Shown here piece by piece: positions 50,558 through 63,686 of a stretch of DNA of 64,000 nucleotides. Every line of letters starts with the position of its first letter. Positions within the stretch are counted from its first letter, which is position 1. The stretch spans positions 288,001 through 352,000 of the forward strand of contig JAHPZE010000001.1 of the NCBI GenBank assembly GCA_019058365.1, in the 5' to 3' direction. A program made the position numbers and the translations under genes. Origin of the DNA: Promethearchaeota archaeon. Its GTDB lineage: Archaea > Asgardarchaeota > Lokiarchaeia > Sigyniarchaeales > SOKP01. The notes beneath the pieces are model-generated. The model was given only the letters and a program-made list of their open reading frames with translations, made no database searches and was not told where the DNA came from.

Positions 50558-51619
50558 CTATGCTTCTGGAATTAAAATATTAAATTTGCTTCCTTGAGAA
50601 AAATCTCCGGATATTTTGTCTTCAACCCAGATTTTTCCATTATATTTTGCTATTATTTTATTAACAATTGATAAACCAAAACCCATTCCTTTAGAATATT
50701 TATCTTTATTTAATTTTCTCTTAAATATAATTTCTTTCCTTTCATCGGGTATTCCAATACCATTATCAATAATTTCAATTTTTATATAATTTATTCCATT
50801 ACTAATCTTCCTTGAAATATTTACATTAATTTCCACATTAGGATTATCATTATATTTTACACTATTAATTATTATATTCTCAAACATATCTAATAAGAGC
50901 TCATTCGCTATTACCCATATCTTTTTATCTGGAGTATCTATTGAGATTGATAATTCTCTATCAAGTATACTTCTTTGAAGAAATGTAATTGCCTCTTCAA
51001 GAATTCTATTTACATCTACATTTTCTAAATACATTTCAGAATCCTCTAAATTCGCAAGCTGTTGTGCATTTGAAACTAGCCTCATGCCTCTAAAACCTTG
51101 ATCTCTTATTATATCTATTAACATATCCAAGTCCTTCGCATTTTTACCATTTTTTCTATATAATGAGTAGAGTTCTGTTGCTGATTTAATATGCTGAATT
51201 ATATTGTTAATATCATGAGTCAGAAGGTCTCTATAAAAGATTAAATCCTCGTATGCTTTATTTAGTTCTTCAGTCTTGGAGATTTCTTCGCTTAAAAAGC
51301 TTATTATAATACCTATAATTATAAGAAATAATGCACGGAGGAGGTTATCTATGTTATATAAAGTTAATATATCCATTCCAAATAAAAAAGGAAAGAAAAT
51401 CAGTGAAATTGCTAGAAATATAGGAACAATTAAACCTTTTTTTTTCCACCAAAGACATGCTAGAATTGTTGGAATATAAAAGAAATGTGAAAAAACTACA
51501 TTAGTATTATGAATTACCTGAAACAAATAATTTAGGAGAGACGAAATAATTAAGAAAAAAGTTAGAATAACCAATTTTAATTTATTTAAATATTTTTCAA
51601 ACTGTGTTTTTATAATCAT
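50558..51619 (-). CDS. Membrane sensor histidine kinase (DUF4118-like TM region)
   Basis: HFFYIPTILACLWW TM bundle; HDINN; N-box; DNGIG; GMGFGL. Confidence 0.9.
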   Translation of the reverse strand: MIIKTQFEKYLNKLKLVILTFFLIISSLLNYLFQVIHNTNVVFSHFFYIPTILACLWWKKKGLIVPIFLAISLIFFPFLFGMDILTLYNIDNLLRALFLIIIGIIISFLSEEISKTEELNKAYEDLIFYRDLLTHDINNIIQHIKSATELYSLYRKNGKNAKDLDMLIDIIRDQGFRGMRLVSNAQQLANLEDSEMYLENVDVNRILEEAITFLQRSILDRELSISIDTPDKKIWVIANELLLDMFENIIINSVKYNDNPNVEINVNISRKISNGINYIKIEIIDNGIGIPDERKEIIFKRKLNKDKYSKGMGFGLSIVNKIIAKYNGKIWVEDKISGDFSQGSKFNILIPEA

Positions 51620-51718: not shown

Positions 51719-53032
51719 TTAATGCGTTGCACATGATATGCAAGGATCAAAGGCTCTAATTATCCTCTGAACACTATTTTTCACTAAATTAATATCTCCT
51801 GTTCTTTCAAATAATACTTTTGCATAATTCGTAATCATTTCATTTATTAGTGGAATATTAAACTCAGTTGCTACAAATAATTTTATACGATCAATAGAAT
51901 TATGATTATTTACATAATAATGATGTAAAAGTGTCCCTCTGGGGGCCTCAATAACACCGATCCCATCAATTTTTTTTACGGAGTTCAGAGAGGAGATTTC
52001 TTGTTTAACAGTTAAATTATGATCATCTAAAATTTGTATACTCTGGACACTTTCTATATACATTTCTAATAATCTAATAAAATTAGCAAATAGAATATTA
52101 TTTTTCCATGGTTTATCAAAATATTCTAGATAAGTCTGAATTTCATCTGTACCATAATTCTCGTTAATATTGTATCTGGTTAAAGGTCCTACTATAACAT
52201 TTTTTTTATTATCAAAGTAAAAGTCTATTCCACGTAATTCAGGCTCCTTTCCAAAATAGGAAGAATAATTCTGCTTTTCAAATTCTATCATATTTCTATT
52301 AGTTTCTTTCAATGATAACCTACCTGAATATCGATTATAATTTCTTAAATTCGAGAGACCGAGATAAATGAGATTTGGAGCATCGAATTCTTTAGGTGGT
52401 AATTGATGAGAAAATAATTCAATAAATTTTTCAATGATCCATTCCAAACTGATTAAAGCATTTTGAAATCTTTTTTTAGCTATTGATATATCCTTTTTGG
52501 AAGGAGAGTAAATAATTCCTCCAGGAATAAGTGAAATTAAATGAATTGATCTACCCCCAAACAAATTATTAATTTCATTTCCAATTTTAATTAGTTCATA
52601 TATATTTGAAGTTATTTGAGGGTCGTAATTAATTAAATCATAAGCAGTTGTAGTTTTCTGACTAATATTAAAAATATTTAATAGATCTGGTAATGTTTGG
52701 AAAAAGAAACTCATAGAATGTGATTTGATTAATTCTCCAGTCATTAAAATGCGCCTTAAGAGTTTTGCTTGTTCTGAAACCTTAATATTATATATATCCT
52801 CAATTGCTTTACAACTCGCGATTGCTTGAGAAGCATAACATAATCCACATATCCTAGGAACTATTTTTGGAATATCTAATAATTTCTTTCCAATTAAGAA
52901 ATTTTCAAAACCTCTATAAATTTTAAATTCAAAATTTACTAACGAAATTTCATCATTTTGAACTAAAATTTTTATTTCCCCATGCCCTTCAACACGTTTA
53001 CAAACATCAATGACTTTTAACATTTTTTTCAC
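51719..53032 (-). CDS. mvhA: Group 3 [NiFe]-hydrogenase large subunit (MvhA-like), lacking the C-terminal extension
   Basis: RVEGHG, RGFE, PRICGLCYASQ, EAPRGTLLHHY, RAFDPCISCATH-stop. Confidence 0.9.
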   Translation of the reverse strand: MKKMLKVIDVCKRVEGHGEIKILVQNDEISLVNFEFKIYRGFENFLIGKKLLDIPKIVPRICGLCYASQAIASCKAIEDIYNIKVSEQAKLLRRILMTGELIKSHSMSFFFQTLPDLLNIFNISQKTTTAYDLINYDPQITSNIYELIKIGNEINNLFGGRSIHLISLIPGGIIYSPSKKDISIAKKRFQNALISLEWIIEKFIELFSHQLPPKEFDAPNLIYLGLSNLRNYNRYSGRLSLKETNRNMIEFEKQNYSSYFGKEPELRGIDFYFDNKKNVIVGPLTRYNINENYGTDEIQTYLEYFDKPWKNNILFANFIRLLEMYIESVQSIQILDDHNLTVKQEISSLNSVKKIDGIGVIEAPRGTLLHHYYVNNHNSIDRIKLFVATEFNIPLINEMITNYAKVLFERTGDINLVKNSVQRIIRAFDPCISCATH

Positions 53033-53787
53033 CCTTCCAATTTTGGTTTCGAGAATCGGTAAAAAATACCAGTGTAGTTTTTGAGTTCTTCAGATAAATT
53101 TATTAAACTCAAATAGTTAACAAGGTTAGAAGTAAAATCTTTTGATACTGGTCCTATACATCCTTCACAGGGAAGTCCCATCTTAATACACATATGTTCA
53201 CACCCATCTCGTATAATAGGTCCTAAACATAAAATACCCTTTGCTAAAAAACATTCAGAGTTTTCCTCATCAAGTTTAATCTCTTCTGGATTTGGTGTAA
53301 TTTTTGAGATATTTATATTTGAATTTATTTCCATGTTCCCTCTTAATGGGCAACTACCACACATATTTTTTTCAGAGAGTTCTATTTCTTTATTTTCAAC
53401 CAATCTAATTAGACAATTACCAAAAAGTTTCATAGGTGGTGGACAACCTGGAATGATACCATCAATTTCAATATATCTTGAAATTGGTTCTGTCATTTTT
53501 ATATCTGATAGGCTTAAAATTCCTCCAAAACAAGCACAAGTTCCTAATGCATATATTTTTTTAGCTTGTTTTCGGATTTTTCGAAGGATAGGTATTTGAT
53601 CATCTTCAGAAACACATCCTTCAATTAAACAAACATCACAATCTTCAATATCCATTACATCGGAAATAAATTGAAAGTAAATTACTTTAGTACGTTCAAG
53701 GAATTGTGGAAAAATATCTAACGATATAAGAGAAGAGATGCATCCACTACAAGATGTTAAAGATATTATTGCAAATTTACGTTTCAA
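53029..53787 (-). CDS. mvhG: [NiFe]-hydrogenase small subunit (MvhG-like)
   Basis: SCSGC, GTCACFGG, PGCPP, CGSCP, CLGP..GC..C..PCEGC; TTG start at 53787 after GGAGG; GTGA overlap with mvhA. Confidence 0.88.
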   Translation of the reverse strand: MKRKFAIISLTSCSGCISSLISLDIFPQFLERTKVIYFQFISDVMDIEDCDVCLIEGCVSEDDQIPILRKIRKQAKKIYALGTCACFGGILSLSDIKMTEPISRYIEIDGIIPGCPPPMKLFGNCLIRLVENKEIELSEKNMCGSCPLRGNMEINSNINISKITPNPEEIKLDEENSECFLAKGILCLGPIIRDGCEHMCIKMGLPCEGCIGPVSKDFTSNLVNYLSLINLSEELKNYTGIFYRFSKPKLEG

Positions 53788-56326
53788 ATTTAACCTCCTC
53801 CAATAATTTATTATAAAATTTATTAGCAACCTCAGCAAACTTGTTCCCTTCAACAGCATTCAAATGTTTAAGAATTATTCGCTCACGGTATTTTGTCGGG
53901 ATAATATTTTTTAATATCAATATTTTTTTTTCTACTTTCTCTACTCCATCAATATATCGACACGCATTTTTTCTACAACCAATTATCATCACTCCATCAA
54001 AACCTAACTCAAACGATTTAATTATGAAATTCGTATCTATGCGACCAGTGCAAGGAACACTTAAAATAAAGATATTTGGATTATATGAGATCTTCTTAAG
54101 ACCCGCATCATCTGCAGCAGCATAACCACAAGAACGACAACAAAAGGCAATAATTTTAGGTTGTTTTCTAAATTTCGAAAAAATTTCAATTGATTTTAAA
54201 ATCTTCTCAGAATTATCTATGTTTAAATCTATCGCATTAGTGGGACAAATACTAGCGCATGTACCACATCCCTTACATTTAAATTTATCTATATTTACTT
54301 TTTCTGATTCTATTGTAATTGCATTGTAAGGACAAATTTTAGAACACAATCCACATAAGCCACACTTGTTATCATCGATTTCGATTCCACTAAACTCCGC
54401 TATCAAATAATCATTAGAGAGTAATGAAATGATTTTAATCGCTGTATTATTAGCTGTTGAAATCGTAGAATTATAATCTAATGGACCAAATATAGTTCCA
54501 ACCCCATATATTCCAGATGCTAATGTCTCTTCACTCATAAAACCATAATCATCTAATGTAAAATCCATTGTTTTTCGAAATGCTTTTAAGTCTTTATTTG
54601 GTACTAAAGTTTGATTTAACACTATTAAGTCACTTGGATATTCTTTTGAATCGACTTTTACTATCTTTTGATCGTTTTTTTCAACAATTTTTACTTTATT
54701 AGAATAATGTATCCTAGAATCCATGGATCTTAGTGTAAAGTCGTCTGCTTTTTTTATCTTACTTAAATCGTAAAAAATATTGACTTTACAATCAGGATTT
54801 TTTACTTCAACATAATTTAAATATTTTAAAGCAAGGATATCTTGAAGTTTATGTTGATGATCAGGGTGTCCAGCATATTGAATAATCGAAATCGTCTTTG
54901 GAGGCGTTTTATCAGAAATTTTTACTATTTTACCTTCTGTGAAGCCATCAGAAGATAACATTCTTTCAAACTCCGATGATGTAATGATATCATTTTGTGG
55001 GTTATAACAATATTCATCTAAATCTGTAAAAAGATCAGAACCGATAGCTATAACTTTAGTACCTACCTTAATTTCAATTTTTTCTGGTTTTTGTGTCAAA
55101 TCTATTGCTTTATTAACGCATGCACGTTCACAAATTCTGCAATTAAGACAATTCTTAATATCTGATTCATCAATTAAAGGAACATAGGGAAAAGAATGAA
55201 TAAATGGGATATAAATAATTTTTCTATTATTTAATCCAAATTCATATTGATTTTGTTTTTCAATACTGCATACTTTTATGCATTGTTTACAACCAGTACA
55301 TTTCTTTGTATCTACATATCGCGGTTTTTTAATCAAATTAAGAGTAAAATTTCCGACTTCTCCTGAAACACTTTCTATTTCAGTATTAGTAAGTACTTTT
55401 ACATTTTTTTCATTCACCAACTCACCTATTAATTCTGAAATGAAGCATATAGAACAATCGCCCATATTATGTATTCGATCCCATCGGGCTACTTTACCTC
55501 CCAAAGTTGGTGATTTCTCAATAACATATACTTTTATTCCAGCTCGAGCTAAGTTTAATGCAAGTGTTATACCCGCTATTCCACCTCCTAAAATTGCAGC
55601 ACTTTTTTCAATTTCAACTCTCTTAATTTTTACTTTTTTTTGAAGACTAACGCGTTCAACTGCTGCTTCAATTAATAATTTTGCCTTTTCTAATGAAAGA
55701 GAGGGATCGATTTGATTAATTTCGAATTGATGTACCCAACAACATTGTTCTCTAATATTTGCTATTTCTATATTCACATGTTCAATGACACCATCAAAAA
55801 TTCGCTTAAAAAGATGCTGATGAGTTTTTGGAGAGCAAGCAGCTATTACAATCTTGTTTAAAAAGTTATCTTTTACCCAATGTGTAATTTTATCAAAATT
55901 TTTTTGCTGGCATAAATTTTCGAAGATTTTTACAGATACAACCTTTCTTAACTTATTTACATATTTTTCAAGAGCAGTTATATTAATTACATTTGAAATT
56001 TCTGTATTGCAATTGCAAATTATTACTCCAATTCGGCTTATTTCACTTCCCTGAGAATCTAAGTATTCATCAATATTTTCTCCTGATAAAATTCTTTTGT
56101 TGAGATTTAGTATTTTTAATATACGTTTACCATCTTCCGTAAGAAAATATGATTTTTTATCTTTATTGATTAATGTACCAATTTTTTTGAGATGGAAATT
56201 TAACTGTCCTGTAGTATCTAAACCCAATTTTTCCATTAAATCTGTATAGGGAATATAACCCTCTTTTTCTAAAAGGAGTAAGATCTTTCTTCTAAACGGA
56301 TGAGATAATATAGAATATATATCCAT
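53777..56326 (-). CDS. Winged-helix (ArsR-like) / HdrA / MvhD fusion protein
   Basis: LSHPFRRKILLLL..YTDLMEKLGL.TGQLNFHLKK..YFLTEDG; RIGVIICNC, NIREQCCWVH, GGGIAG, two ferredoxin pairs; C-terminal AFCCRSCGY..PCTGR..GC..ACRY. Confidence 0.9.
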   Translation of the reverse strand: MDIYSILSHPFRRKILLLLEKEGYIPYTDLMEKLGLDTTGQLNFHLKKIGTLINKDKKSYFLTEDGKRILKILNLNKRILSGENIDEYLDSQGSEISRIGVIICNCNTEISNVINITALEKYVNKLRKVVSVKIFENLCQQKNFDKITHWVKDNFLNKIVIAACSPKTHQHLFKRIFDGVIEHVNIEIANIREQCCWVHQFEINQIDPSLSLEKAKLLIEAAVERVSLQKKVKIKRVEIEKSAAILGGGIAGITLALNLARAGIKVYVIEKSPTLGGKVARWDRIHNMGDCSICFISELIGELVNEKNVKVLTNTEIESVSGEVGNFTLNLIKKPRYVDTKKCTGCKQCIKVCSIEKQNQYEFGLNNRKIIYIPFIHSFPYVPLIDESDIKNCLNCRICERACVNKAIDLTQKPEKIEIKVGTKVIAIGSDLFTDLDEYCYNPQNDIITSSEFERMLSSDGFTEGKIVKISDKTPPKTISIIQYAGHPDHQHKLQDILALKYLNYVEVKNPDCKVNIFYDLSKIKKADDFTLRSMDSRIHYSNKVKIVEKNDQKIVKVDSKEYPSDLIVLNQTLVPNKDLKAFRKTMDFTLDDYGFMSEETLASGIYGVGTIFGPLDYNSTISTANNTAIKIISLLSNDYLIAEFSGIEIDDNKCGLCGLCSKICPYNAITIESEKVNIDKFKCKGCGTCASICPTNAIDLNIDNSEKILKSIEIFSKFRKQPKIIAFCCRSCGYAAADDAGLKKISYNPNIFILSVPCTGRIDTNFIIKSFELGFDGVMIIGCRKNACRYIDGVEKVEKKILILKNIIPTKYRERIILKHLNAVEGNKFAEVANKFYNKLLEEVKFET

Positions 56327-56412: not shown

Positions 56413-56588
56413 TGATAAACAAAATGATCTCTATGATAAATATCATTGTCAGAGTATATAAATATGATCCTTTTCCCATTTATAGTATTTGAAAGTAGTC
56501 AAATAAGTGTTAGAAAGATCATAGTTTTTATCATAAAAGCGATAGATCCTCTATAAGAAAATAATTATACGAAGATCAGATTCGTATA
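56413..56588. promoter_or_regulatory. Divergent promoter region with several inverted repeats
   Basis: TGATAAA-N5-TGATC at 56413 and inverted at 56517-56533; ATGATA-AA-TATCAT at 56433; TATACGAA-N7-TTCGTATA at 56566-56588. Confidence 0.5.
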
Positions 56589-56791
56589 TTAAGTCAAAAA
56601 AAGACTAAAAATTTTGTCAAATAATTAAAATTTCTCTTATCAGATTTTTTAAATTTACTTAAAATCATCATTTAATCTGAATAGCAGAAAAAAAAATGCA
56701 TTTTATTCTTTTGCAGATTTTTAGTTTTTTCAATTTCATGAATTTATTACATTATAATTAATAGTAGGTGATGTTTTACTAGGTGAATTAA

Positions 56792-58828
56792 ATGTCTGAG
56801 ATACAGACCATGGTGAGAATTGGAGTATATATCTGTAGATGAGGAGTTAATATCAGTACTTCTATCGACTGTGATCTTATTAGAGATTATGTTGAGGCCC
56901 TCCCAAACGTTATTGTTGCTAAAGTAAATGATTTTACTTGTAGCGATCCAGGACAAAAAATTATCAAAAACGATATTTTAGATTTAGACTTAAATCGAGT
57001 GGTTGTTGCAGCTTGTACACCTAAAATTCACGAATCCACCTATCGATTAGTTTTAGTTGAAGCAGGATTAAACCCATATTACTTCCAAATGGTTAATCTT
57101 CGTGAGCATTGTTCATTTACTCACTCGGGAAATAAGAGAAAAACTACTGAAAAAGCTATAAGGTTAGTGCAAGCAGGGATAAATCGTGCTAGAGAATTAG
57201 AGATAGTACCTTATAAAAAATTATCAGTAGAGAAATCGGTATTAATTATCGGTGCGGGTATTGCGGGAATGAATGCAGCATTAGATTTAGCAAATCAAGG
57301 AATAAATGTATATTTAGTCGAAAAAGAAGCTACAATTGGAGGTAAAATGGTACAATTAGATCGAATTTATCCCACAGACGATTGTGCTATATGAGTTCTA
57401 GCACCTATTATGGTTAGTACTTCAAAACATCCAAATATAACCTTATTTACTTGTAGTGAAATCATAAAATTTAGTGGCAACACTGGAAACTATAATGTTA
57501 TAATACACAAAAAAGCCCGGTATGTTAATGAAAGTAAATGCACGGGTTGTGGATTATGTACTACAAAATGTCCAATAAAGGTACCTAACGAATTTGATAG
57601 AGGTATGGGTGAACGAAGCGCAATTTACATACCTTTTCCCCAAGCAGTACCTAAGGTTGCTTTAATTGATAAGAGTGTTTGTATAGATTGCAAAAGTTGT
57701 GAAAAAATTTGTCCCGCAGAAGCTATTGACTTAGATCAAACCTCAGAATATATAGATTTAAAAGTTGGTGCAGTCATTATTGCAACGGGATGGGATGAAT
57801 ATCCAATTATGAAAAATAACGAATATAAATATGGTATTTATCTTGATGTTATTACTCAAATAGAATTGGAACGAATGTTAAGTCCAGTTGGACCAACTGG
57901 GGGTCATGTATGTAGAATTTCTGATGGAAAAATCCCAAAAACAGTCGCGATGATTCAATGCGTGGGTTCAAGATCCTTAAACGGGAATCCCTATTGCTCA
58001 GGAGTATGTTGTAATGTTGCACTTAAAAACGCTCAATTGTTAAAACATGAATATCCTGATATGGAAATTGTTATTTTTTATATAGATATGCGGACATGGG
58101 ATAAAGGAAATGAGGAATATTATAGAAAAGCGAGAGAAGCGGGGATAATGATGATTCGAGGAAAAGTAGGAGATGTAAGACAAGATCCCAACTTAAAAAA
58201 AATAAAAGTTACAGCTTCTTCAACTTTAACAAATGATTTTATTACAATGGATACCGATTTAGTTGTATTATCTACGGGAATGGTCCCCTCTAAAAAAACA
58301 ACACAAATCGTTGAGACTTTAGGAATTGCTAAAGATATAAATGGGTTTTTAACTGAAGTTCATGGATGCCTGAAACCTCAAGAGACAAATAATTTGGGTA
58401 TATATATATGTGGCTGTGCTGCTGGACCTAAAAATATCCCTTATTCCGTGTCAACTGCATTAGCTGCTGCAAGTAAAGCATCTACTTTACTCTGTAAAGA
58501 TACAATAACTCAAGAATTAATCATCGCTGAAGTAAATGAAAATTTATGTATGGGTTGCCATAGATGTGAAAAACTTTGTAATTATAATGCAATAAAAGTT
58601 AATAGAGAGAATATAGCTATAGTAGATGATTTAAAATGTAAAGGGTGCGGAGTTTGTGTATCATCATGCCCCGCTAGAGCAATTGATCTTAAATACTATA
58701 GAGATAAGCAAATTAGTGAAGAGATAAGAGGGATCTGTAGTACTGAACTTGAATATAAGGAAGAATATATTGAATCTATTGATCTTATTTGGAAAAAGAT
58801 TGAAGCATTAGCTCCTTATCAAACATAA
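56792..58828 (+). CDS. hdrA: Heterodisulfide reductase subunit A, selenoprotein with two Sec (U17, U201), 678 aa
   Basis: AGGTGA RBS then ATG 56792; TGA at 56840 in RIGVYICRUGVNI and TGA at 57392 in TDDCAIUVLAP, both at conserved Cys positions; joins ORFs 56999 and 57410 in one frame. Confidence 0.92.
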
Positions 58829-60572: not shown

Positions 60573-63500
60573 TTAAACAATTTCATAATCAATTATGTCT
60601 AAACTTGGTAATAAATCAATCATTTTGCTAATTTGAAATTTACTAAAATGATTTTGATCAATAGCCCCAACTGAACATTCCACAACACAAGCTCCGCACC
60701 CCTTACAAACAGCACTAATTATATGAGCCTTTTTCATAGATATATTATACAAACCCATCTCTTTACAGATTTCAACCAATTCAATTGCATTATAGGGGCA
60801 AATCTCAGTACATTTACCGCATCCTATACATTTTTCTTCATTTACATAAGAAGTAATACATTCAGTTTCTATTTCTCCTTTAACCATTATTATTGCTGCT
60901 CTTCCAGCAGCAGCATAAGCTTGAATAATACTTTCACCAATCCATTTCGGCCAATGAGCGCCTCCACAAAGGAAAATTCCTTCTGTTGCAAAATCAATTG
61001 GTCTAAGTTTTGCATCAGCTTCTAAGAAAAAGCCATCTGTATTTGTTGATACTTTTAACATTTTTGCTAATTGTTTTGTATCATCAGTAGGAACTTTTGG
61101 AGTGGCTAATATTAATAAATCAGTATCATATTTTATATTTGTTTGAGCGCCAATATTATTATATAAGATATGGAACTTATCATTTACATCACTGATTTTG
61201 ATATCATCAATTGAACGATATCTTTCATAAGTTACTTTCTTTCGAAGACCTCGCCATAAATTTTCAGCATTTAAATCGGAGAATTGAAATTCTCTATATA
61301 AAATATGAATTTGTGCTTTAGGGTTGATATTCAATAATTTTTCAATATTCTTTAATGCTACACCACAACAGATATTTGAGCAATAAGGTTTTATATTATC
61401 TCCCCTATTAAATTCGTTTCTTCTTTGATCTACGCACAAAATTATTGTAGCATCTTTAAATACGGGGACATCTTCATCACTCAATGCAGTTAATTCAGTT
61501 TGAGTAAGCAGACGATTAGGATATTTTTCCGATAAATCTGCCCATCTATTTGTTTTTATTTGTTTAGTTCCCGTAGAAACTATTATTGTACCTACATTGA
61601 ATTTTGTATATTTTGAACTATCATTAACATTTTTAACTTTTACTTGATAATTTCCAACATAACCTTGGATATCCTCTATTTCTGAATTTAATAAAATATG
61701 AATATCAGATTTGTTTTTCAAATCAGCAATTTTCTGTAAAATTTCATTTTTCGTAATAGGTATATAATATAAATCAATAAATTCAAGAGCGATACCTCCA
61801 AGAAAAGATTTCTTCTCTACAAGATATATCTCGAATCCTTGATTTGCCAAATTATGTGCAGTAGTTATTCCTGCTATTCCACCGCCAATAATTAAAGATG
61901 ATTTTTCAACTTTTTCTTTAATGGTTTCTAATGGTTTTAAATTAATAACCTTCGCTAAGTGCATTCTTATTAAATCACATGCTTTTTTAGTAGCCTCTTT
62001 AGGTTCATTTTGATGGACCCATGAATCTTGGTTTCTTATGTTTACTAGTTCAAATAAAAATGGATTTAATCCTACTTCTCTTAGAGTATTTTTAAAAAGT
62101 TGTTCATGAGTTCGCGGGGTACAAGAAGCAACTATAAATCTATTAAGATTGTATTTTACAATTAGTTCTTTAATCCGTTCTTGTGAATCAGAACTACAAG
62201 AATACATGTTTTCTTCAACATGAACAACATATGGTAATTTAGAAACATAGTTTACTACTTCAGGAACGTTAACAATACCCCCGATATTAATACCACACCG
62301 ACAAACTAAAATACCTACACGAGGTTTATCCTCTGGTTTTACTGGTATTTCTGGAGGATATTTCACTTTTATAATATTTTGAAATCTAACAGGATACAAT
62401 TTCTCACTAATTTTAGCTGCACATGCAGAACCTTCAGCAACAGCCATTTGAATGTCATTGGGTTTTCTAGAATAGCCAGTTACGAATATATTCTTTTTTT
62501 CAAGTAAAATTATATCAGTCTCACTAATATAACCTAAATCATCACAATCCAAACTGAGTTTTTTTAATAGCTTATAATAAGAAGGAGGTGGAGATAGTGC
62601 ACTAGCCAATATAACCATATCCACTTCAAAAGTTCCAACTTTTCCTTTATCAATATCTTCAAAATATAACTTTAATTTTCCGTTATCTAAATTTTCTTTA
62701 ACATATGAAACATGCCCGTTCACATATTTGACATTATATTCATTCTTACTTTTTTCAATAAATTCGTAAAAGTTCTTACCTTTTGCTCTGATTTCTGTGT
62801 TAAAAATATAGCAGTCGATATTTGGATCATGTTCTTTGACAACTATTGCTTCTTTAGCCGAATTCATGCAACATATGGCAGAACAATATTTTTTACATTC
62901 TGGATGATGAACGTTTCTGGAGCCTACACATTGTATAAAAGCAATTGAATGAGGATGTTTTTTATCATCTAATCTTATAATTTTACCACCTGTAGGCCCA
63001 TTTGCTGATAAAAGACGCTCAAATTGCATATTGGATAAAACATTAGGGGAAGAACCCGCAAAAGAATTATAAATTTCTGGCATTTCTTGATTATATCCTG
63101 TAGCAATAACAATAGCCCCTACTTTTAAATGTATTTCTTCTGGTTTTTGTAAAAAATCTATCGCTTCTGCACTACAAGCTTTAGCACAAAGTCCACATAT
63201 TCTATAATTTAAATATAAACATTTTGATTCATCAATGAGATATATTGGGGGTACTGAAGATGGAAAAGGAATATATATCGCACTTCGAGTTTTTAAATGA
63301 GTATCAAATTCGCTAGGAATTCCTCTAACGGGACAAATTTCGCCACAATCTCCACATCCTTTACAGAGGTCTTCTTTTAAATATCTTGGCTTCTTAATAA
63401 TTGTTATTGTGTAATCACCAGCAGTTCCTCTAATGTTTTTAATGTAAGAATAAGTAAATAACTCAATATTTGGATTTCTATATATATCAACCATTTTCGG

Positions 63501-63686
63501 AGCTAAGATGCATAAGCTACAATCAAGAGTAGGATATATTTTATCTAATTGGGCCATAGTACCTCCTATTGTTGGTTTAATTTCAACTAAATATACTTTA
63601 AAACCTAATTTGGTTAGATCTAAGGATGCTTGTATCCCTGAGATTCCTCCTCCAATAACCAAAACACTACTCCATAAATTTGGCAT
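60573..63686 (-). CDS. hdrA: Large HdrA paralogue with two FAD modules (Cys form)
   Basis: GGGISG..YPTLDCSLCILAP; internal RVGILVCRCGINI; second GGGIAG; CVGSR..YCSAICC. Confidence 0.9.
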   Translation of the reverse strand: MPNLWSSVLVIGGGISGIQASLDLTKLGFKVYLVEIKPTIGGTMAQLDKIYPTLDCSLCILAPKMVDIYRNPNIELFTYSYIKNIRGTAGDYTITIIKKPRYLKEDLCKGCGDCGEICPVRGIPSEFDTHLKTRSAIYIPFPSSVPPIYLIDESKCLYLNYRICGLCAKACSAEAIDFLQKPEEIHLKVGAIVIATGYNQEMPEIYNSFAGSSPNVLSNMQFERLLSANGPTGGKIIRLDDKKHPHSIAFIQCVGSRNVHHPECKKYCSAICCMNSAKEAIVVKEHDPNIDCYIFNTEIRAKGKNFYEFIEKSKNEYNVKYVNGHVSYVKENLDNGKLKLYFEDIDKGKVGTFEVDMVILASALSPPPSYYKLLKKLSLDCDDLGYISETDIILLEKKNIFVTGYSRKPNDIQMAVAEGSACAAKISEKLYPVRFQNIIKVKYPPEIPVKPEDKPRVGILVCRCGINIGGIVNVPEVVNYVSKLPYVVHVEENMYSCSSDSQERIKELIVKYNLNRFIVASCTPRTHEQLFKNTLREVGLNPFLFELVNIRNQDSWVHQNEPKEATKKACDLIRMHLAKVINLKPLETIKEKVEKSSLIIGGGIAGITTAHNLANQGFEIYLVEKKSFLGGIALEFIDLYYIPITKNEILQKIADLKNKSDIHILLNSEIEDIQGYVGNYQVKVKNVNDSSKYTKFNVGTIIVSTGTKQIKTNRWADLSEKYPNRLLTQTELTALSDEDVPVFKDATIILCVDQRRNEFNRGDNIKPYCSNICCGVALKNIEKLLNINPKAQIHILYREFQFSDLNAENLWRGLRKKVTYERYRSIDDIKISDVNDKFHILYNNIGAQTNIKYDTDLLILATPKVPTDDTKQLAKMLKVSTNTDGFFLEADAKLRPIDFATEGIFLCGGAHWPKWIGESIIQAYAAAGRAAIIMVKGEIETECITSYVNEEKCIGCGKCTEICPYNAIELVEICKEMGLYNISMKKAHIISAVCKGCGACVVECSVGAIDQNHFSKFQISKMIDLLPSLDIIDYEIV

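Follow-up and report, generated by a model that had tools for sequence, protein, structure and literature searches.

Can an HdrA protein that has lost a cluster of its flavin domain still bifurcate electrons, and what might it do instead if it carries a DNA-binding head? This question is raised by a gene, P0001, in a 64,000-nt stretch of Promethearchaeota archaeon DNA (assembly GCA_019058365.1, contig JAHPZE010000001.1, positions 288,001 to 352,000), the whole of which is called the window here. The product of P0001 is an HdrA protein with an N-terminal winged helix-turn-helix (HTH) domain and a C-terminal MvhD domain. Genes of this kind are routinely annotated as 'MvhADG-HdrABC' and are used to infer bifurcating H2 metabolism in Asgard archaea, including hydrogen-based scenarios of eukaryogenesis. 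Our analysis indicates that P0001 cannot work like the methanogen enzyme of its annotation and that it is more likely an H2/redox-responsive gene switch.

The analysis followed up an earlier reading of the DNA, the original prediction, which had placed an intact frame of 849 amino acids (aa) at 53777-56326. These coordinates are correct, the gene lying on the minus strand. A database search for P0001 gave more than 120 clusters at 67-95% identity, nearly all of them 845-855 aa long and equipped with DUF7347, and the family alignment comprised 121 members in this identity range. The parts of the protein are the following:

53777..56326, minus strand: coding sequence of the winged helix-HdrA-MvhD fusion (P0001), 849 aa; open reading frame and translation without internal stop
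56087..56326, minus strand: winged HTH domain, aa 1-80 (PF24038 at 4.8e-10, AlphaFold2 (AF2) model, Foldseek)
55622..56044, minus strand: HdrA N-terminal domain with the ligands Cys104/106/139/164, kept in 121/121
55571..55588, minus strand: dinucleotide-binding motif GGGIAG for flavin adenine dinucleotide (FAD), aa 247-252, glycines kept in 121/121
55082..55321, minus strand: inserted ferredoxin domain with two [4Fe-4S] clusters, equivalents of HA5 and HA6, aa 336-415, 8/8 Cys kept in 121/121
54827..54892, minus strand: vacated site, probably that of cluster HA4, aa 479-500 (alignments; canonical HdrA has C-x(11-14)-C-x3-CC there)
54182..54406, minus strand: C-terminal ferredoxin domain with two [4Fe-4S] clusters, aa 641-715, 8/8 Cys kept in 120-121/121
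53780..54181, minus strand: fused MvhD domain, a [2Fe-2S] carrier, aa 716-849 (PF02662 at 2.7e-33, aa 725-841)

Pfam detected PF24038 (DUF7347) at aa 2-71, a weak HTH_24 match, FAD/Pyr_redox, Fer4 and FlpD. When PDB sequences were searched, aa 95-715 matched the solved HdrA chains 8RVU, 5ODC and 7BKB (phmmer, E 1e-89 to 1e-112) and aa 722-841 matched MvhD chains. The AF2 model of the whole protein has a mean predicted local distance difference test score (pLDDT) of 86.9 and reveals a compact part (aa 1-80) that is connected to the HdrA body by a disordered linker (aa 82-94). For the FAD-fold region, where GGGIAG conforms to the GxGxxG pattern, pLDDT values exceed 90.

The missing motif falls into the stretch IQYAGHPDHQHKLQDILALK (aa 482-501), which reads Y484, Q491, Q495 and D496 at the four motif positions. 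The canonical cysteines are present in both neighbouring HdrA genes, a selenocysteine (Sec)-containing one at 56792-58828 on the plus strand (IQCVGSR..YCSGVCC) and a double HdrA at 60573-63686 on the minus strand (IQCVGSR..YCSAICC), and the translations confirmed their predicted absence from P0001. Not one of the 121 family members has Cys at position 491, 495 or 496, and position 484 is occupied by Cys in 32, by Glu in 50 and by Asn in 12 of them. The remaining redox equipment has been retained throughout, as had been noticed before for the N-terminal ligands, GGGIAG, EFER and the ferredoxin and MvhD cysteines. All 20 cluster cysteines of the N-terminal and the two ferredoxin domains are kept in 120-121/121 sequences, a D-C-x-x-C pair (Cys291/294) and the MvhD cysteines (aa 729-789) each in 117-121/121. 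GGGIAG, E454, R455 (EFER being located at aa 452-455) and K501 are invariant (n=121). According to an alignment to 8RVU, K501 and E454 are the equivalents of K409 and E356 (121/121 each), the lysine lying five residues past the CC position. Conservation calculated per domain was highest for the HTH (0.889) and lowest for the vacated loop (0.626). The absence of the cysteines is not a matter of chance, it is family-wide and selective for one site.

Which cluster is affected follows from the published architecture of HdrA, which contains six [4Fe-4S] clusters. The inserted and the C-terminal ferredoxin domains hold two each, the N-terminal domain holds one, and the thioredoxin-reductase domain holds one together with FAD (PMC12054007, PMC5861303). 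Key residues of the thioredoxin-reductase domain, which holds the FAD and this one cluster, are K409 and E356 in Methanothermococcus thermolithotrophicus numbering (PMC12054007). After reduction of the flavin, its high-potential electron leaves over cluster HA4 in the direction of HdrC and the active site of HdrB (PMC13580544, PMC12350162). The low-potential electron reaches ferredoxin or polyferredoxin over HA3, HA5 and HA6 (PMC13580544, PMC12350162, PMC6019823). It is inside the thioredoxin-reductase domain that the missing motif is situated, and it ends five residues before Lys501, which is aligned with K409. Since this domain is the site of a single cluster, elimination leaves HA4 as the one concerned. 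The HA4 ligands of M. thermolithotrophicus are presumably Cys386/399/403/404 (Wagner et al. 2017). Judged by domain position, by elimination among the six published clusters and by this ligand numbering, the lost motif is most probably that of HA4.

A flavin without its high-potential outlet cannot perform the methanogen type of bifurcation to HdrBC. The claim that one electron path of the flavin domain has been removed thus stands, the path being the one through the putative HA4 site. By contrast, the accompanying idea of a dead end is not supported because the clusters on the ferredoxin side have been fully kept, leaving a through path. Following the published cluster map, a linear path from H2 to these clusters would remain, and a pure dead-end sensor would not need invariant clusters of the HA5/HA6 type. 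P0001 can thus be regarded as a natural HdrA 'mutant' in which the flavin, the tuning residues and the low-potential branch are kept while the high-potential branch appears to be deleted, which makes it a test case for the HA4 dependence of bifurcation.

It is conceivable that the cluster is still present but held by other residues (His, Asp, Glu, or Cys513 and Cys196), or that the gene is simply decaying. The loop of P0001 contains three His and two Asp, and there are two clade-specific cysteines which do not occur in canonical HdrA, Cys513 in 110/121 and Cys196 in 80/121 sequences. However, the His and Asp positions of the loop are not conserved; positions 484, 489, 491 and 495 each show at least five residue types, for which reason replacement ligands in the vacated loop were rejected. 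Compared with its canonical counterpart, the loop also lacks about 10 residues, it evolves faster than any other part, and a cubane cannot be bound by two Cys. Decay was addressed by ratios of non-synonymous to synonymous substitution rates (dN/dS), obtained from codon alignments of 13 orthologue pairs. For the whole gene the values were 0.05-0.13, and for the HTH, which belongs to the most constrained parts, they were 0.007-0.10. A raised ratio was confined to the vacated loop of 22 codons, the most relaxed segment, with values up to 0.65. Random decay, already doubted in the original prediction, is excluded by the whole-gene values, and frames are intact in more than 100 species. Hence, the protein is functional with one site deleted, and re-ligation or decay is very improbable.

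The question of a partner for the missing branch leads to the operon. Downstream of P0001, two hydrogenase genes follow:

53029..53787, minus strand: MvhG-like [NiFe]-hydrogenase small subunit (PF01058; VhuG-like; start read from the sequence)
51719..53032, minus strand: MvhA-like [NiFe]-hydrogenase large subunit with the L1 motif RICGLCYASQ, ending in DPCISCATH without a C-terminal tail

The likely start of mvhG is a TTG at 53787 behind GGAGGAGG, by which the gene overlaps the end of hdrA by 11 nt. An overlap of 83 nt, resulting from the listed ATG at 53859, was rejected as conservation of MvhG begins at about residue 23-28 and the TTG is preceded by GGAGG. The overlap of approximately 11 nt suggests translational coupling. 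Among 58 species-level loci, the fusion gene is followed by an MvhG-like gene in 50 and by an MvhA-like gene in 47, that is, in every locus with enough sequence. Neither hdrB nor hdrC was found in the operon, in the window or in the approximately 47 orthologous loci. Since both the HdrBC genes and the cluster reaching HdrBC are missing, the inference of bifurcation is wrong for the Loki module, and the poor fit to a bifurcating enzyme that had been suspected is borne out in as much as canonical bifurcation to HdrBC is concerned.

The large subunit deviates from other hydrogenases as well. In all 44 readable loci of the Cys-less clade its L1 motif is R-I-C-G-L-C-(Y/H)-A-S-Q, with Gln in place of His, and in 43 of 44 the protein ends with D-P-C-x-S-C-x-x-H. 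Two deep branches, L039 and G159, keep an MvhA tail of 5-6 residues; G159 (54% identity) is Cys-less and possesses Gln in MvhA together with a tail of six residues. HTH-fused relatives that keep the HA4 motif have His and a tail of 5-12 residues (10/10 readable). The four NiFe cysteine ligands of MvhA are kept. H2-sensing regulatory hydrogenases are characterised by two features, a Gln that replaces a near-universal His close to the active site and a large subunit that has no C-terminal extension (PMC5665086, PMC8229454). P0001 and its partners resemble the group 2b enzymes (HoxBC/HupUV with HoxJ-HoxA of Ralstonia and Rhodobacter) in these two traits and, possibly, in reporting H2 to transcription. 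On the other hand, MvhA is group-3-like, its best family matches being ShyA and VhuA, and it does not belong to group 2b; moreover, the signal would be relayed by a flavoprotein that itself binds DNA, in place of a histidine kinase with its response regulator, and the kinase gene in the neighbourhood is not conserved. The coincidence of the putative HA4 loss with the His-to-Gln exchange in MvhA is suggestive, although it is one co-occurrence on one branch and not a statistical result.

Wider relatives were searched among 50%-identity representatives. Four HTH-fused relatives at 35-41% identity (P0127, P0128, P0129, P0132) keep C-x5/6-C-x3-CC, and one at 47% identity is devoid of it. The Cys-keeping loci belong to Thorarchaeota, Bathyarchaeia, a Thermoproteota metagenome-assembled genome (MAG) and MAGs labelled Promethearchaeota, in addition to one partial protein labelled Lokiarchaeia, and such relatives carry the same three-gene operon. 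A maximum-likelihood tree was calculated from the HdrA core, from which the HTH, the vacated loop and MvhD had been removed. In this tree all HTH-fused proteins form one long-stemmed clade (Shimodaira-Hasegawa-like approximate likelihood ratio test, SH-aLRT, 100), within which the Cys-less proteins are nested as a clade of their own (SH-aLRT 99); the outgroup HdrA and HdrA-MvhD proteins all retain the motif, with the exception of the long-branch P0232. The nesting therefore gives a history of one HTH fusion followed by one cysteine loss, and this single later loss defines the Loki clade. The original prediction had asked whether the loss of the cysteines goes together with the HTH, which does not hold in both directions since HTH fusions of Thorarchaeota, Bathyarchaeia, Thermoproteota and one Lokiarchaeia lineage keep them. 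It had also named Cys-keeping HTH-fused orthologues as a finding that would speak against it; cysteines were retained in distant HTH-fused homologues, not in orthologues. All HTH-fused proteins, with or without the HA4 motif, miss the stretch D-x-R-x-x-G-K-G-x-E-E-(F/Y) after the K409 helix (P0001 aa 518-530), so that the loss of this stretch is older than that of HA4. About 100 of the 161 species genomes of Lokiarchaeia each have a single copy starting at HTH residue 1, and most of these genomes belong to one family. With the same query, no HTH copy was found in a Lokiarchaeia family that includes complete genomes of 4.3-4.4 Mb. The host genome of P0001 holds about 20 further HdrA-like genes, P0001 being the sole HTH-fused one.

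The isolated HTH was modelled by AF2 with a pLDDT of 88.8 and the layout H-H-H-H-beta-beta-H, and it matches PF24038 and PF13412. Its top Foldseek matches were YodB, HxlR, NolR-DNA, CadC and MarR, all of them DNA-binding repressors (template modelling (TM) scores ~0.7). In the putative recognition helix (about aa 39-48), the residues T39, G40, N43 and H45 never vary between Loki and Bathyarchaeia. Possible target sites were identified upstream of the gene:

56434..56451, no strand: operator-like palindrome TGACAATGATATTTATCA, 12/12 match to TGAYAA-N6-TTRTCA
56413..56642, no strand: four weaker sites (10/12) starting at -104, -207, -293 and -316, in the same 465-nt divergent intergenic region

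From the start codon, the rare palindrome TGACAATGATATTTATCA lies 125 nt further upstream, and a TTTATATA box (56455-56462) precedes it by 3 nt. A layout of proximal plus distal sites is also present in L021, L022, L027, L028, L029, L036 and L037. Within 400 nt upstream of the gene, a 12/12 site occurs in 17 of 51 orthologous loci, and a site of at least 11/12 in 29 of them. Other 12/12 sites are nearly all either pairs at about -1320/-1500 in front of an extra FrhB-like gene or sites in other intergenic regions of the neighbourhood. Thor-type loci, whose DNA is much richer in G+C, reveal GACAA-N6-TTGTC at -143, while the Loki/Thor pattern had no match at Bathyarchaeial loci. A genome-wide regulon was rejected: exact matches in the 4.7-Mb genome numbered 6 versus 3-10 in shuffled sequences, and matches of at least 11/12 numbered 138 versus 143-166. 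The sole pair of sites of at least 11/12 in these 4.7 Mb is found at C16:353666-353789, in the promoter of the Mtd operon (Mtd, methylene-tetrahydromethanopterin dehydrogenase). This pair and the site at the fusion operon were the only conspicuous ones. The pair borders on the upstream side of the 'MEVLELKP' genes, which encode a TraB-like protein and a TraB-like-Mtd fusion. In many other species TraB-like/Mtd genes are divergent neighbours of the fusion gene with which they have the operator-bearing intergenic region in common, and at Thor-type loci Mtd is situated directly downstream of mvhA. The palindrome thus follows the fusion and Mtd operons, and the winged helix of the operon is the obvious candidate for its binder. 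As the HTH, the operon and the operator core are also found in relatives keeping HA4, DNA binding would be independent of the cluster loss, and both HTH and operator are older than it.

In approximately 15 species (L004, L007-L018, L024, L038, L043, L047-L049), an FrhB/FdhB-like gene of 372-385 aa lies at -1250 to -230, between the operator pair and HTH-hdrA, and the operon appears to be led by an F420-type flavoprotein there. Such a protein could be the partner of an enzyme that still bifurcates or confurcates, with the high-potential electrons going to a hydride carrier at the flavin (NAD(P) or F420) or to a docking protein such as the FrhB-like one. This would agree with the invariant equivalents of K409/E356, markers of bifurcating HdrA (PMC12054007), with the F420H2 reaction thought to occur at the flavin of HdrA2-type fusions (PMC12054007, PMC6019823) and with an NAD(P)-type Mtd as conserved neighbour. 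However, Pfam did not detect a nucleotide-binding insertion such as GltD in P0001, the FrhB-like gene is absent from the operon studied here and from most deep branches, and the HTH-fused clade is deprived of D-x-R-x-x-G-K-G-x-E-E after the K409 helix. We consider this explanation unlikely.

The reading that we favour, at close to an even chance of being right, is a non-bifurcating, hydrogenase-wired repressor responsive to H2 and redox state: a complex of the winged helix-HdrA-MvhD protein with MvhG and MvhA but without HdrBC, which in the Loki branch would have shifted towards signalling. Electrons from H2 would travel from MvhA over MvhG to the [2Fe-2S] cluster of MvhD, then to the cysteine pair and FAD, a shuttle cluster and the two clusters of the inserted ferredoxin domain, from where onward transfer to ferredoxin is probable. 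The redox state of the flavin and Fe-S chain would accordingly be set by H2 on one side and by the ferredoxin pool on the other. The winged helix of an HdrA dimer may act as a repressor by binding TGAYAA-N6-TTRTCA at its own operon, immediately behind the TATA box, and may also bind the promoter of the TraB-like/Mtd operon. It is conceivable that the short flexible linker (aa 82-94) transmits the redox state to the winged helix and that DNA binding changes accordingly. Loss of HA4, the His-to-Gln exchange in MvhA and the later loss of the MvhA tail would mark the shift from turnover to signalling. The same shift looks to be reflected by a separate HdrBC-linked hydrogenase in the genome (C16:91413-94040), which has the canonical motif RICGICPIPH and is followed by HdrC- and HdrB-like genes (C16:94332-95746). 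The redox sensor that had been proposed from the outset, without its dead end, is consistent with the HA4 loss, with the exchange in the partner MvhA on the same branch and with the conserved promoter palindrome. A narrower version, in which the enzyme of Lokiarchaeia has turned into a dedicated one-complex H2 sensor, comparing the redox states of H2 and ferredoxin and switching Wood-Ljungdahl (Mtd) and Hdr genes, is tentative.

Several observations weigh against the signalling repressor. The assignment of HA4 was derived from domain position, elimination and ligand numbering, not from structure coordinates, and the winged helix is a candidate binder of the palindrome that was proposed from the genomic context. 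HTH, operon and operator core are also present in relatives which keep HA4 and the His of MvhA. Loss of HA4 and the exchange of His for Gln coincide a single time, on one branch, and the Gln of regulatory hydrogenases was judged to be probably not needed for H2 sensing itself (PMC5665086). The invariant clusters of the ferredoxin route are no less compatible with an active enzyme of electron transfer than with a sensor, and the FrhB-like gene that heads the operon of about 15 species resembles the partner of an enzyme.

A serious rival is a mainly catalytic, non-bifurcating hydrogenase (H2:ferredoxin oxidoreductase or ferredoxin-driven H2 evolution) that, while not engaged, represses its own operon in the manner of PutA and has lost HA4 for want of an HdrBC partner. 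Its chain of MvhA, MvhG, MvhD, FAD and ferredoxin domains is complete and invariant, the four NiFe cysteine ligands are in place, and an FrhB-like gene heads the operon in some species. HTH and operator predate the loss of HA4, and Lokiarchaeia are thought to evolve or consume H2 by group 3c enzymes (PMC7015854, PMC11216029). On the other hand, no flavin is needed between two one-electron chains, the genome possesses the second, HdrBC-linked [NiFe] hydrogenase, and both the exchange of His and the missing tail are typical of sensors with a low turnover (PMC5665086, PMC8229454). Furthermore, the operator is also located at the Mtd operon, which goes beyond self-regulation, and a cultured Loki-type family with complete genomes yielded no HTH copy with the query used. 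On balance, the catalytic enzyme is somewhat doubtful.

Literature searches did not retrieve a description of an HTH-fused HdrA or of a hydrogenase-linked transcription factor in archaea. Should the regulatory reading be true, it would demonstrate H2 sensing in archaea by a compact hydrogenase-to-DNA switch with a defined operator; with a one-complex sensor, archaea would have their first known transcription factor that senses H2, and H2 would be signalled without kinase or response regulator. The classification of HdrA proteins in methane-metabolising archaea contains MvhD fusions and cluster variants, but not the order winged HTH-HdrA-MvhD (PMC12054007). P0001 shares with methanogen HdrA (MvhAGD-HdrABC, Elp-Hdr, Fdh-Hdr; 5ODC, 8RVU, 7BKB, 9SW2) the order of N-terminal cluster, FAD fold, inserted and C-terminal ferredoxin domains, the flavin-adjacent Cys pair, the K409/E356 equivalents and the partner genes mvhG and mvhA. 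What separates it from them is the lack of the HA4 ligands, of hdrB/hdrC in the operon and of D-x-R-x-x-G-K-G-x-E-E, and the presence of an N-terminal winged HTH and a fused MvhD. Its NCBIfam scores are far below the HdrA cut-offs (578.6 versus 1100 bits for the best match HdrA2, 428.7 versus 1300 and 376.8 versus 1400). Like the type Ia HdrA-MvhD fusion HdrA2 (HdrA2B2C2 of Methanosarcina acetivorans), the protein has a C-terminal MvhD. However, HdrA2 has retained HA4, cooperates with HdrB2C2 and lacks a DNA-binding domain, and the HTH-fused clade is a separate long-stemmed branch.

A flavoenzyme with an N-terminal DNA-binding domain is PutA, which is switched off DNA by the redox state of its flavin. 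P0001 is comparable to it, by analogy only, as a flavoprotein that carries a DNA-binding domain itself and whose promoter contains a candidate operator. The folds of PutA (ribbon-helix-helix and proline dehydrogenase) are unrelated, and PutA has neither a hydrogenase nor an Fe-S chain. With the ArsR/SmtB, HxlR/YodB and MarR repressors the HTH has the fold (TM ~0.7), a weak ArsR/SmtB hidden Markov model match and a putative palindromic target in common, and the candidate site lies behind the TATA box, as is usual for archaeal repressors. Unlike these repressors, the HTH heads a redox protein of 849 aa, is assigned to Pfam DUF7347 and does not evidently possess their metal- or thiol-sensing residues. 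Another non-canonical flavoprotein derived from HdrA is sHdrA of Hyphomicrobium denitrificans (6TJR), which weakly matches aa 437-635 of P0001. sHdrA keeps only FAD and the flavin-proximal cluster. P0001 represents the opposite reduction since everything but the flavin-proximal cluster is kept.

Some further observations concern the surroundings of the operon and its relatives. The window has a G+C content of about 30% and belongs to a Sec-using organism whose closest relatives are MAGs labelled Promethearchaeota/Lokiarchaeota. The HdrA gene at 56792-58828 (plus strand) contains two in-frame TGA codons, one in C-R-U-G (N-terminal) and one in D-C-A-I-U, by which the gene is split by the ORF caller; both positions align with Cys in paralogues, and HdrA with multiple Sec has already been published for Lokiarchaeota (PMC4989117). 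Directly 3' of mvhA, a histidine-kinase-like membrane protein (50558-51619, minus strand) with HATPase_c and N-terminal transmembrane helices is encoded. Since no more than about five orthologous loci possess it (L014, L020, L028, L034, L038), it was rejected as a member of the unit. The second hydrogenase belongs to a cluster (C16:91413-95746) which is composed of a 438-aa small subunit, the large subunit and HdrC-/HdrB-like genes beside hypD/E/F. The frame of its large subunit stops before the C-terminal Ni-binding motif, which occurs further downstream in a piece with an in-frame stop; the arrangement may represent a split of the VhuU-like kind with Sec. Beside NuoF-/NuoG-like genes of Bathyarchaeia, the HTH-HdrA-MvhD/MvhG/MvhA operon was found as well (L061 1510-5629, L067 10609-11850). 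The same loci harbour a fusion of a [NiFe] small subunit and the C-terminus of an [FeFe]-hydrogenase, which is the 'hybrid hydrogenase' type (PMC11216029). On a scaffold of 3.7 Mb from Promethearchaeota, a Cys-less copy with 51% identity (L069 6001-7839) is interrupted after about aa 627, where G+C-rich sequence without relation to it takes over; this may be due to an assembly join or a disrupted gene. Finally, a 72%-identical fragment of the fusion gene is located on a 4.4-kb contig (L056) labelled Candidatus Deferrimicrobium, a bacterial MAG, into which the contig was probably mis-binned.

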